64,000 nt of DNA, taken from assembly GCA_964291365.2 (NCBI GenBank), contig OZ219975.1:693-64692 (forward strand). The letters are read 5' to 3'. Below the pieces are notes generated by a model. The model saw only the letters and a program-made list of their open reading frames with translations, had not been told where the DNA came from and ran no database searches. The number at the start of each line of letters is the position of its first letter. The stretch's first letter is position 1. Origin of the DNA: Stappiaceae bacterium. GTDB taxonomy: Bacteria > Pseudomonadota > Alphaproteobacteria > Rhizobiales > Stappiaceae. The translations under genes were made by a program, and so were the position numbers. Below are positions 53,271 through 59,320 of this stretch, piece after piece.

Positions 53271-55987
53271 TGTGTGTGAGTAATGTGCGTGTATACATGT
53301 AAAACTTCAGCTTGTTGTGTATCAGAGCGAGCGATTGGAATGTACTGAGCATTTAGGACTTGCCTGCTGTTAAGGTGGCACATCTTTCAACAGTAAGACT
53401 CGGCTAAGATGGCACATCTTTAAGCTGAATGAGCATAACAGCGTGCGAGTTATGTGCGTGTGTACATGTGAAACTTGAGCTTATTGTGTATCAGAGCGAG
53501 CGATTAGAATGTACCAAGCATTAAAGACTAGCCTGCTGTTAAGATAGCACATCTTTCAAAAGTAGGACTCAGCTAAGATGGCACATCTTTAAGCTGAATG
53601 AGGATATGAGTGTGTGAGTAATGTACGTGTGTACATGTGAAACTTCAGCTTGTGTATCAGAGCAACCAACTGGAATGTACCGAAGATTTAGGACTAGCCT
53701 GCTGTTAAGTTGGCACATATTTCACAGTAAGACTCAGCTAAGATGGTACATATTTAAGCTGAATGAGTATACGAATGTGAGAGTAATATGCGTGTGTACA
53801 TGTGAAACTTCAGTTTGTAGTGTATCAGAGCGAGCGATTGGAATGTACCGAGCATTAAGGACAAGCCTGCTGTTAAGATGGCACATCTTTCAACAGTAAG
53901 ACTCAGCTAAGATGGCACATCTTTAAGCTGAATGAGCATAAGAGTGTGTGAGTAGTGTACGTGTGTACATGTGAAACTTTAGCTTGTTGTGTATCAGAGC
54001 GAGCGAATGGAATGTACCGAGCATTTAGGACTAGCCCGCTGTTAAGATGGCACTTCTTTCAACAGTAAGACTCAGCTAAGATCGCACATTTTTAAGCTGA
54101 ATAAGCATAAGAATGTGTGAGTAATGTACGTGTGTACATGTGAAACTTCAGCTTGTTGTGGAGCGAGCAATTGGAATGTTCTGAGCATTTAGGACTAGCA
54201 TGCTGTTAAGATGGCAAATCTTTCAACAGTGAGACTCTGCTAAGATGGCTCATCTTTAAGCTGAATGAGCATAAGAATGTGTGAGTAATGTACGTGTGTA
54301 CATGTGAAACTTCAGCTAGTAGTGTATCAGAGTGAGCGATTGGAATGCATCGAGCATTTAGGACTAGCCTGCTGTTAAGATGGCACATCTTTCCATAGTA
54401 AAGCTCAGCTAAGATGGCACATCTTTAAACTGAATGAGCATAAGAATGTATGAGTAATGTACGTGTGTACATGTGAAACTTCAGCTTGTTGTGTATCAGA
54501 GCGAGCATTTAGGACAAGCCTGCTGTTAAGATGGCACATCTTTCAACAGTAAGACTCAGCTAAGATGACACATCTTTAAGCTGAATGAGCATAAGAGTGT
54601 GTGAGTAATGTACGTGTGTACATGAGAAACTTCAGCTTGTTGTGTATCAGAGCGAGTGATTGGAATGTATCGAGCATTTAGGTCTAGCCTGCTGTTAAAA
54701 AGGCACATCTTTCAACAGTAAGACTCAGCTAAGATGGCACATCTTTAAGCTGAATGAGCATAAGAATTTTTGAGTAATGTACGTGTGTACATGTAAAACT
54801 TCAGCTTGTTGTGTATCAGACTGAGTGATTGGAATGTATCGAGCATTAGGACTAGCCTGCTGTTAAGATGGCATATCTTTCAACAGTAAGATTCAGCTAA
54901 GATGGCACATCTTTAAGCTGAATAAGCATAATAGTGTGTGAGTAATGTACATGTGAAGCTTCAACTTGTTTTGTATCAGAGTGGGCAATTGGATAATACC
55001 GAGCATTTAGGACATTCCTACTGTTAAGATGGCACTTCTTTTAACTCTAAGACTCAGCTAAGATGGCACACCTTTAAGCTGAATGAACATAAGAATGTGA
55101 GAGTAATGTACGTGTGTACATGTGAAACTTCAGCTTCAGACTGAGTGATTGGAATGTATCGAGCATTAGGACTAGCCTGCTGTTAAGATGGCACATCTTT
55201 CAACAGTAAGATTCAGCTAAGATGGCACATCTTTAAGCTGAATGAGCATAATAGTGTGTGAGTAATGTACATGTGAAGCTTCAACTTGTTTTGTATCAGA
55301 GTGGCAATTGGATAATACCGAGCATTTAGGACAATCCTGCTGTTAAGATGGCACTTCTTTTAACTCTAAGACTCAGCTAAGATGGCACACCTTTAAGCTG
55401 AATGAACATAAGAATGTGAGAGTAATGTACGTGTGTACATCTGAAACTTCAGCTTGTTGTGGAGTGAGTGATTGGAATGTACTGAGCGTTTAGGACTAGC
55501 CTGCTGTTAAAATGGCACATCATTCAACAGTAAGACTCAGCTAAGATGGCTCATCTTTAAGCTGAATGAGCATAAGAATTTGTGAGTAATGTATGTGTGT
55601 ACATGTAAAACTTCAGCTTCAGAGTGAGCGATTGGAATGTATCGAGCATTTAGGACTAGCCTGCTGTTAAGATGGTACATCTTTAATCTGAATGAGCATA
55701 GTAGTGTGTGAGTATTGTACGTGTGTACATGTGAAACTTCTGCTTGTTGTGGAGCGAGTGGTTGGAATGTACTCAGCATATAGGACTAGCCTTCTGTTAA
55801 GATGGCACATCTTTCAACAGCTAAGATGGCACATCTTTAAGCTGAATGATCATTAGAGTGTGTGAGTAATGTACATGTGTACATGTGAAACTTCAGCTTG
55901 TTGAGGAGTGAGCGATTGGAATGTACTGAGCATTTAGGACTAGCCTGCTGTTAAAATGGCACATCTTTCAATAGTAAGACTGCTTGT
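53271..55987 (+). repeat. 169-bp satellite array (copy 2 of 5465-8705)
   Basis: It is collinear with copy 1 except for 4 missing monomers and one duplication of about 320 bp. Confidence 0.95.
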
Positions 55988-58900
55988 CACAGGAAAACGA
56001 CTCCATGTGGACGGATTTACGCGGTCTACCGTATTGATGAAAGAAGCGGGCGCTACACTGCCTGGAGACGGCGTACCTGTAACACGGACTCTGTCAGTAT
56101 TCCGTGTAAGATACGCACGGTGCATGCGGACTCCGTTGCTTGCACTATGCTTGCACGGTTACAACATTCGGTATCCGTCCTCTCGGCTTGCGCTACACGG
56201 ACGCAGTATAGAGCCGCGCGCGAGACTCCACCCAATGCGCCCGGAATATTGAATCGCGAATACATATACGCGTACGCGAATTGAAAGCGATCGCGCGCGC
56301 TGCGCCGCGCTGCTAGCTCTAATAGAAGAGGTATGGTTTCAATAATTAAAGCTCAGATCAGGGCGCCAGCATGCAATACAGACTCACTGCTCAGCAATCA
56401 AAAATATTCTGTGAACATTGCTCTTGGCGTGTGAGCAAATCCATGTTTAGTCGCCACCGCGCGATAACTTCTACAACAAGAAATGGCAAGAATGGTCGAG
56501 AGAACAACCGATGAGCAGTTCTAGTCAGAATTCGGACTTCACAGCCCAGGCTCGACCACGATCCATCGCACAGCTTGCCTTTTGAAAGGATGCAGGCATG
56601 ATCCTAAAAACTCTTTACTGGTATGTGAATTATGGAATAGCTCATTGAGTGCCAAAATTATGAACCATGGCATGCACACATGCACGTGTACTCACACACA
56701 CACACACACACACACACACACACGCACATCAGATCGGTTAGTGAGTCTGACAGTTCAGAGTGATGAGATCATGATGATGTCAAGTCGAGAGTTTGTAGGC
56801 CATTAGGTATACACTCACTAGAGCTAAATGCATGTATCAGCATGCCATGCATATACCGAGGCTATGCATGCATGTGTATTTAGCCAGTGTTTGTATCTCT
56901 TTATAGAAACACTACCCAAAACTGTGGATACTGACTTCCATTTCAGTGGCTAGCGCCCTCATAGTTGGCGTCCACACCTACGACTGATTATAAGTTAAGT
57001 GATGCATGTGTGTACGTTATGAGCAATAGGAGCTTTAAGCTTTATATGTTTAGGCTTGGTTGTTAATTCTTGTAACTAACATGTATGTGCAAACAACCCT
57101 GATCTGATGACACTGTGCACATTATTGTATTGCACCTGGTAGGCTATAGCTAACACCAAGGTTTAATTATTAAGCTGATAAGCTTTATCTATGAATTAAG
57201 TTCTGCCACATGTGAATAGAGTGTCCTATACCACTTCTACTACTTTCCCATGCCCAATGACCCACTTGTCCATAATGTGAGTGTACGTGTGTACATGTGT
57301 GAAACTTGAGCTTGTTGCGTATCAGAGCGAGCGATTGGAATGTACCGAGCATTTAGGACTAGCCTGCTGTTAAGATGGCACATCTTTCAACAGTAAGACT
57401 CAGCTAAGATGGCACATCTTTAAGCTGAAAGGGCATAAGAGTGTGTGAGTAATGTGCATGCATACACGTGAAACTTCAGCTTGTTGTGTATCAGAGCGAG
57501 CGATTGGAATGTACCAAGCATTTAGGTCTAGCCTGCTGTTAAGATGGCACATCTTTCAACAGTAAGACTCAGCTAAGATGGCACATCTTTAAGCTGAATG
57601 AGCATAAGAGTGTGTGAGTAATGTATGTGCATACGTGTGAAATTTTAGCTTGTTGTGTGTCAGAGCGAGCGATTGGAATGTACCGAGCATTTAGGACTAG
57701 CCTGTTGTTAAGATGGCACATCTTTCAACAGTAAGACTCAGCTAAGATGGCACATCTTTAAGCTGAAAGGGCATAAGATTGTGTGAGTAATGTGCGTGCA
57801 TACGTGTGAAACTTCAGCTTGTTGTGTATCAGAGCGAGCGATTGGAATGTACCAAGCATTTAGGTCTAGCCTGCTGTTAAGATGGCACATCTATCAGCAG
57901 TAAGACTCGGCTAAGATGGCACATCTTTAAGCTGAATGAGCATAAGAGTGTGTGAGTAATGTACGTGCATACATTTACATGTGAAACTTCAGCTTGTTGT
58001 GTATTAGAGCGAGCGATTGGAATGTACCGAGCATTTAGAACTAGCCTGCTGTTAAGATGGCACATCTTTCAACAGTAAGACTCAGCTAAGATGGCACATC
58101 TTTAAGCTGAATGAGCATAAGAGTGTGTGAATAATGTGCGTGTGTACATGTGAAACTTCAGCTTGTTGTGTATCAGAACAAACGATGGGAATGTACCGAG
58201 CATCTAGAACTAGCCTGCTGTTAAGATGGCACATCTTTCAACAGTAAGACTCAGCTAAGATGGCACATCTTTAAGCTGAATGAGCATAAGAGTGTGTGAG
58301 TAATGTGCATGTGTACATGTGAAACTTCAGCTTGTTGTGTATCAGAACGAGCAATTGGAAGATGGCACATCTTTAAGCTGAAAGGGTATGAGATTGTGTG
58401 AGCAATAGGCTCGTGTACATGTGAAACTTCACTTGTTGTGCGTTAGAGTGAGCAATTGAGATGTACATGTACCAAGCATTTGGGTGACTATCCTACAGTT
58501 TAGTGGGCTATGGGGAAATATTTGGAACACAGTCCTCTGTACCACAAGTGTCTAACATTGATGAATGTCCATCTCATTGTATAGACTTGGTATGTAGGTT
58601 GTTATAATATGCATCAATTATTATTTGTAATACTATTTATTATAGAAGCAGTTCATGGCTACTGTGAATGTTGTTGGAGGTAGAGAGAGCTGAAAAAGTG
58701 CTGAAGAGGAAAAGAAAAAGCAGGAAGCATTCAAGTTTTAGCTGTGATTGACTAACTACACCAACTGAGTGGATGTATCTACTCTCTTCATTAATTATTA
58801 TTGTTATGCTATTAATAATTATTATCATTATTGTAATTTTAATGCAAATTTATACGCATGCGCTATATGATATGATTCGGACGGGATAGAACTGACTGGA

Positions 58901-59200
58901 AGGGGATCGTCAGACGGAGTTGATACGTACAAGTGGACGGAGGCGGTCCATGCGGTCCGATCGGACAGACGGAATCACACGACGGACAATACTGGATAAA
59001 ACGGAGTATCTAGACGGACTCGGCACGGATCTGATAGCGGACTCAGTGAAATAGTCCGTAAAAAGTGGTCCCAATACGGGCGACAACGGTACTCGTTATC
59101 CTGGACATCGGAGATTCCGTTCCAAGCTCGTCTATACGGCGAACGCGGACCTCGTTCTCCCTGTATACGTGCACAGTTCACGCGGCTACGTTTTCCTGTG
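55988..59200 (+). mobile_element. CACTA/CMC-like satellite-carrying transposon, complete copy (3.2 kb), copy-2-specific insertion
   Basis: The 12-bp TIRs are perfect: CACAGGAAAACG (55988-55999) and CGTTTTCCTGTG (59189-59200). The TSD TGT lies at 55985-55987 and 59201-59203. The empty site gcTTGTgtatc is in copy 1 (TGT at 8703-8705). The interior is a left arm, a unique part with (AC)n, satellite and a right arm. Confidence 0.92.
57277..58490 (+). repeat. 169-bp satellite (about 6.5 monomers) inside the 55988-59200 element
   Basis: Same monomer family, bounded by element-specific unique sequence on both sides. Confidence 0.9.
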
Positions 59201-59320
59201 TGTGTATCAGAGCGAGTGATTGGAATGTTCCTAGCATTCTAGTGACTAGTAAGATGGCACATCTTTAAGTTGAAAGGTTATGAGAGTGTGTGAGCCATAG
59301 GCTCGTGTACATGAGTTTCG

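Follow-up and report, generated by a model that had tools for sequence, protein, structure and literature searches.

How did a 3.2-kb segment come to lie in the middle of a satellite array in one copy of a segmental duplication and to be missing from the other? We addressed this question in a stretch of 64,000 nucleotides without N gaps (hereafter, the window) from contig OZ219975.1 (assembly GCA_964291365.2, filed under a Stappiaceae bacterium), in which self-comparison revealed that 239–15837 (copy 1) is repeated at 47357–64000 (copy 2; offset, ~47.1 kb). The two copies are ~98% identical outside satellite arrays and differ by several insertions and deletions. A contig from another assembly (L001) runs beyond the equivalent of 64000 into sequence like 16063–20711, so the repeated unit exceeds what the window shows. 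The host was judged to be sponge-like from a neighbouring gene whose best named relatives come from Halichondria panicea and Dysidea avara. The extra segment (55988–59200) is very probably a non-autonomous class II (cut-and-paste) transposon that carries a 169-bp satellite and that inserted, after the duplication, into the array of an older family member (C′) in copy 2.

The junctions carry this interpretation. Copy 1 reads ...AGTAAGACTGCT TGT GTATCGG..., with a single TGT, and copy 2 reads AGTAAGACTGCT TGT, then the element from CACAGGAAAACG to CGTTTTCCTGTG, then TGT GTATCAG:

8703–8705, unstranded: empty target site with single TGT in copy 1 (sequence and flank alignment; also empty in the independent contig L015)
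55985–55987, unstranded: left TGT of the target-site duplication (sequence and flank alignment)
59201–59203, unstranded: right TGT of the target-site duplication (sequence and flank alignment)

The left flanks of copy 1 and copy 2 align over 503 bp without gaps as far as the TGT (98.8% identity) and the right flanks over ~700 bp from the TGT onward (97.8% identity). As these alignments meet at the TGT, the two copies differ here by exactly the element (3213 bp, with inverted ends matching at 12/12 positions) plus 3 bp. We aligned the junctions flank by flank; a single global alignment (8400–9000 against the filled region) strayed into the element, owing to the satellite and right-arm sequence that element and target have in common, which was the first sign that the target itself belongs to the family of the element. 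The exact terminal 12-mer occurs three times in the window on both strands, namely at the two element ends and at the 3′ end of a second family copy (copy B; 41255–41266), and the chance of a 12/12 inverted match at two fixed positions is ~6e-8. A reading of the sequence without database searches (the sequence-only reading) had proposed a filled/empty pair with a 3-bp TGT duplication, to be checked by aligning both sites. That alignment confirms the pair to the base, with the 3.2-kb difference bounded exactly by the inverted ends and the TGT repeat, and a 3-bp duplication also flanks five further family copies. The perfect 12-bp terminal inverted repeats that it had described are present, but are peculiar to the copy at 55988–59200: the six other full copies match at 11/12.

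The anatomy of the element can be read directly from the sequence:

55988–55999, + strand: 5′ terminal inverted repeat, CACAGGAAAACG (sequence, 12-mer scan)
55988–57280, + strand: left arm, 1293 bp, without a long open reading frame (ORF), 91–96% identical to six other left arms
57281–58496, + strand: internal 169-bp satellite array, ~6.3 monomers at ~91% identity, then a degenerate last monomer
58497–59200, + strand: right arm, 704 bp, with many ACGGA(C) repeats in its last ~340 bp
59189–59200, − strand: 3′ terminal inverted repeat, CGTTTTCCTGTG on the + strand (sequence, 12-mer scan)

The first ~340 bp of the left arm are GC- and CpG-rich and contain ACGGA(C) subterminal repeats; further inside the arm is a (CA)n run (56670–56728). 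Across the terminal 2 × 340 bp, ACGGA occurs 15 times and CGGAC 11 times (~1 expected), and the observed/expected ratio of CpG is ~1.5–1.6 in these stretches versus 0.66 for the window. A transposase probably binds at these ACGGA and CGGAC repeats. For the internal array, the call of Tandem Repeats Finder was 57298–58360. The longest ORF in the element has ≤98 amino acids (aa), leaving the element without coding capacity, and scans of the element for RNA families and tRNAs found none.

The array that received the element is itself part of a family copy:

53266–55987, + strand: target array left of the insertion, the internal 169-bp array of the older copy C′ (resumes at 59201)
59253–59863, + strand: right arm of C′ (feature start, 59314; array to 59313), with 3′ end CGTTTTACAGTG at 59852–59863
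5461–9362, + strand: copy-1 counterpart of C′ (array, 5461–8813; right arm, 8814–9362; 3′ end, 9351–9362), enclosing the empty site

The right arm of C′ is 83–89% identical to that of the new element and has a 155-bp internal deletion; in copy 1, homology to this diverged arm spans 8755–9362. The target array (left part; 5461–8700 in copy 1) joins the right arm as arrays inside intact copies do, and no left arm is present ahead of the C′ array in either copy of the duplication. The diverged right arm with its own 3′ end and the array–arm junction indicate that the element entered an array internal to an older family member; C′ is accordingly best read as an older, 5′-truncated family copy and the insertion as self-nesting. 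The array of the new element is ~91% identical within itself and 93–94% identical to the array of copy B, and the target array is 79–83% identical within itself and ~85–89% identical to the new array; of the two, the new array is the younger and more uniform. The sequence-only reading had the element landing in its own monomer family, which stands, as the satellite is the same 169-bp one; the target satellite is not a free-standing one, as the array belongs to C′. We considered the 12-mer CACAGGAAAATG at 1399 and 49188 as a possible 5′ end of C′ and rejected it, given that homology does not extend past the 12 bp, the flank is AAT versus TGT at the 3′ end and the 12-mer falls within an ORF. This 12-mer (1399–1410 and 49188–49199; ~0.015 expected per window) lies within a 217-aa ORF in both copies of the duplication and is probably a chance occurrence; neither the copy-1 217-aa ORF nor P0151 was on record when looked up. 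Just upstream of the C′ array, a 338-aa ORF (4109–5125, − strand) has a weak DUF7869 match (E = 0.016) and is probably a decayed TA-duplicating transposon where the left arm of C′ would be expected.

The element belongs to a dispersed family, of which seven full copies were retrieved, two of them from the window and the other five from two independent ENA sponge-holobiont assemblies (ERZ25072196 and ERZ24894575). Further copies were found through a public protein collection, which contains short spurious ORFs that run from the element across its ends; the tails of those that cross the 5′ end vary and correspond to at least 11 different flanks. All seven full copies follow one plan (1.3-kb left arm, 169-bp array of ~3 to 21 monomers and 0.7-kb right arm; total length, 2.7–7.8 kb), start with CACAGG and finish with CCTGTG, and are 96.7–99.4% identical to the family consensus. 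The 12-bp inverted ends of the family read CACAGGAAAA(C/T)G; the 5′ end is CACAGGAAAATG in the six other full copies, hence their 11/12 match. Perfect 3-bp repeats flank six of the seven (TGT, ATA, CTG, CTC, TGA and ACA). With the same arms, dispersed locations and arrays of variable size, the seven copies constitute a family of satellite-carrying non-autonomous transposons. Two further members lie in the window:

34686–41266, + strand: copy B, second full family copy, 6581 bp; left arm 93.8% and right arm 95.2% identical to those of the element
18082–18670, + strand: still older right-arm fragment, ~80% identity, preceded by satellite monomers at 14590–17451

Like the element, copy B has no ORF able to encode a transposase. 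Its main array lies at 38395–40427, and ~2.1 kb of extra sequence (36232–38394; (GT)n runs at 37014–37469), absent from the other copies, separates the first monomers from the main array. Two insertions were checked against empty sites: that of the element (copy 1 and L015) and that of copy B, which is flanked by GCGTT on the left and TTAGC on the right and for which the empty paralogue on contig L014 reads GCGTTAGC. The duplication at copy B is either 2 bp or a 3-bp GTT with one G lost at the 3′ junction. The flank of copy B (41267–41460) is itself repeated, with the empty site on >20 contigs and the filled site on ~10, so copy B lies inside another repeat or a multi-copy segment. For another full copy (E8, on contig L008), an empty paralogue in the window was rejected, as homology stops ~600 bp short of the element and leaves no simple pair.

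The filled/empty pair recurs in other assemblies. Contig L015 (sample ERZ25072196; 15x), which matches 6531–18481 of the window at 99.2%, is copy-1-like and has the same empty site, and in all of four contigs from two samples (L001–L004) the site is filled, with the same junctions. Where copy 1 and copy 2 differ, these four contigs are copy-2-like (126–140 versus 32–58 on the left; 24–32 versus 3–13 on the right). The two copies behave as two loci, and the pair is real. Among copy-2 alleles, the element measures 3213, 3215, 3230 and 3417 bp, differences that reflect array copy-number change.

Could these data arise without a late insertion? Copy 1 and copy 2 might be two haplotypes of one locus assembled in tandem, which would make the pair an insertion polymorphism between alleles. 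Allelic divergence is indeed high (0.3–2% between the window and L001–L004, similar to that between copy 1 and copy 2), but ERZ25072196 contains one copy-1-like empty contig (15x) and two copy-2-like filled contigs (8x and 4x), which fits two loci, L003 independently links the start of copy 2 to unique sequence (45091–47356) and the window has no N gap; we regard tandem haplotypes as very unlikely. Still less probable is a recombination-mediated deletion in copy 1, between monomers or between two TGTs. The element and its target do share satellite and right-arm sequence, and an extra 800-bp unit in contig L002 (described below) shows that such exchange occurs, but the limits of the missing segment coincide exactly with the 12-bp inverted ends and the 3-bp repeat, and homologous exchange between monomers would not take out a unique left arm end to end.

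The order of events requires more care. The sequence-only reading had placed the insertion after the duplication, and we find this the parsimonious order: copy 1 has one clean TGT, and its monomer form at the empty site (TTGTGTATC) is also present in five other monomers and is thus a natural monomer variant, so that the empty site needs no excision. The reverse order, in which the element predates the duplication and precise excision from copy 1 restored the single TGT, is less parsimonious and we consider it unlikely. Cut-and-paste elements do excise, and the element is 1–3% from the family consensus, no smaller than the divergence between copy 1 and copy 2 (1.2–2.2%) and hence not demonstrably younger than the duplication. 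CACTA-type excision usually leaves altered bases, however, and the empty site has no footprint, its monomer form is the natural variant just described and an identical empty site is found in the independent contig L015.

Besides this alternative order, several observations weigh against an insertion by a recently active element of the superfamily proposed below. In the few haplotypes seen, the insertion showed no polymorphism and hence gives no evidence of recent activity; common to all copy-2 haplotypes seen, it is not a private, very recent event. The element is not especially young, with a left arm 2.9% off the family consensus. The duplication at copy B is only 2 bp (TT), which requires a 1-bp deletion at the 3′ side or a variable stagger of 2–3 bp. 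Neither the window nor ~200 kb of related contigs yielded a CACTA/Mirage/Chapaev (CMC) transposase or an autonomous copy, and the superfamily is therefore assigned only from the terminal sequences, the length of the duplication and the subterminal repeats. The sequence-only reading had also suggested that the family was mobile recently and that presence or absence be examined in other haplotypes. Mobility holds, given at least 11 different flanks; recency is relative, given the insertion in all four copy-2-type contigs and a divergence from the family consensus similar to that between the two copies. In other haplotypes, the site is filled in 4/4 copy-2 contigs and empty in 1/1 copy-1 contig, and polymorphism was not seen.

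To which class of transposon does the family belong? Helitrons and Helentrons make no target duplication, insert between A-T or T-T and have a 3′ hairpin. A rolling-circle carrier of this type, with the TGT being part of the element, would share with the carriers of the oyster satellite Cg170 the architecture of an arm, about six 160–180-bp monomers and a second arm (PMC8268682). We give this reading practically no weight, as the three flanking bases are duplicated, differ in every copy and are single in the empty sites, the insertions do not follow an AT/TT rule and nothing past the 3′ inverted end could form a hairpin. Among cut-and-paste superfamilies, PIF/Harbinger elements make 3-bp duplications favouring TWA. 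TWA duplications (TAA/TTA) are also made by Chapaev3 (PMC4079192) and Zator (PMC12905397). All three were rejected, as none of the seven duplications (TGT, ATA, CTG, CTC, TGA, ACA and (G)TT) is TWA.

The features of the family instead suggest, with moderate confidence, that it belongs to the CMC superfamily. CACTA elements have a 3-bp target-site duplication, and multiple subterminal repeats are typical of them without being defining. Duplications of 3–4 bp and invariant 5′-CAC...GTG-3′ ends are hallmarks of Chapaev and CMC elements (PMC4079192). The family resembles CMC elements in its CAC...GTG termini (7/7 full copies), non-specific duplications within the 2–4-bp range (a perfect 3 bp in 6/7), short inverted ends followed by many short subterminal repeats (the ACGGA and CGGAC counts given above) and presumed mobilization in trans, and differs in that the ends read CACAG rather than CACTA. 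Genes on the fetched contigs included no CMC-type Pfam families, and exact-pattern scans with the 5′ and 3′ ends gave no match in JGI metagenome contigs or IMG/VR.

Two sets of genes were examined as autonomous partners and rejected. The DUF7869 gene (30207–32800) belongs to a separate element with TA duplications and 36-bp inverted ends (29636–29671 and 33623–33658; 92% complementary); this ~4-kb element (29636–33658) encloses DUF7869 ORFs at 30207–31115 and 31586–32800. DUF7869 proteins, which faintly match an ISAzo13-type DDE transposase, have >1800 homologues, and the named homologues include sponge proteins; a 680-bp miniature derivative (28849–29532) adjoins the element. The MULE and OTU genes in copy E8 are part of a nested, separate Mutator-like element, which has ends and a duplication (~11 bp) of its own; Mutator-like elements make duplications of 8–11 bp. 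This 4.7-kb element, nested in the right arm of E8 (L008, reverse complement, 12889–17575), encodes MULE/ZSWIM/ALS2CR8, SWIM and OTU-protease domains and has inverted ends GGGATCGGCTATGTTCACCGC and the ~11-bp duplication ATACGTGTAAG.

We propose the following route for the CMC-like element. A transposase, probably of the CMC type and provided in trans, would bind the ends and the ACGGA(C) subterminal repeats, excise the element and integrate it through a 3-bp staggered cut, by which the target triplet would be duplicated. After the copies had separated, the element would have integrated at a TGT in the internal array of the older, 5′-truncated C′ in copy 2 of the tandem duplication, leaving copy 1 with the unoccupied site. 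Each transposition would move a ready-made array and so seed the satellite at a new locus, and self-nesting would build composite islands of transposon and satellite.

Was the target chosen? Three independent element ends adjoin satellite at one monomer position, CTTGT^TGTGTATC, within 2 bp: the element (55987/55988), the 3′ end of C′ (9362/9363; 59863; within 2 bp) and a 5′-truncated copy on L008 (reverse complement, 972/973), the last with an identical left junction in a different monomer context. Each 169-bp monomer has 13 TGT/ACA triplets, so a shared position is unlikely by chance, with n = 3 only. Tentatively, the transposon may home to CTTGT^TGTGTATC of its own satellite monomer, a possibility that we hold to be doubtful. 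If it does, the family would preferentially re-enter the arrays of earlier copies, a self-reinforcing loop leading to nested islands and, through arm exchange, to higher-order repeats. Across eight insertions, the context is weak (the base before the duplication is a pyrimidine in 8/8, the base after it a purine in 6/8). In L002 (reverse complement, 12544–14721), the new and the older right arms are separated by an extra 800-bp unit made up of one right arm and 113 bp of satellite; its structure is consistent with unequal exchange between two right arms and with an incipient higher-order repeat, a route by which nesting could yield larger repeat units.

That transposons can carry satellite arrays is well established for oysters, Drosophila, Xenopus and plants (PMC9659126, PMC8268682). 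As in the sponge family, the Cg170/HindIII satellite in non-autonomous oyster Helentrons and bivalve ‘pearl’ elements has 160–180-bp monomers (about six) between unique arms and is dispersed by its carrier (PMC8268682); these carriers are rolling-circle elements without target duplication, in contrast to the inverted ends, 3-bp duplication and sponge host found here. Among class II elements, internal satellites are known from the Xenopus miniature inverted-repeat transposable element miDNA4, Arabidopsis Atenspm/ENSAT1 and the Chenopodium CACTA-like Jozin, in which a tandem array arose or is carried in a DNA transposon and spreads by transposition (PMC9659126), two of these being En/Spm or CACTA elements (PMC9659126). 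Their hosts and sequences differ, and the present locus adds direct evidence that an element entered the array of an older family member and that recombination between arms produced a larger repeat unit. In the literature library searched, no paper combined sponges (Porifera), satellite DNA and transposons and none matched the monomer sequence, and this may be the first satellite-carrier transposon family described for sponges. The insertion is a clean but ordinary event; satellite carriage by transposons was already known, and no concept is changed. It provides a base-resolved example of satellite spread, in which an array rides in a transposon, lands at new sites, re-enters older arrays and recombines, and a documented family with paired filled and empty sites for the annotation of sponge genomes and tests of target preference.

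Other repeats in the window are separate from this family. A ~665-bp miniature element (47761–48425), which has TGTGACCGG... ends, is flanked by a TA duplication and shares 81% identity with that at 28849–29532, is present in copy 2, missing from copy 1 (empty site near 640) and absent also from the copy-2-type contig L003 and from L002; it appears to be polymorphic and younger than the satellite-bearing insertion. A 562-bp insert in a satellite monomer (62226–62787), with 13-bp inverted ends CATATCAAGAAGT...ACTTCTTGATATG and no evident target duplication, is present in copy 2 only (copy 1, 14613/14614) and absent from L002. The 5-kb stretch at 21884–27055 is a degenerate minisatellite (18/36-bp unit, TGTTCCCAGTGTGCCTGC; 64–66% matches) that contains long spurious ORFs and has no relation to the 169-bp satellite.

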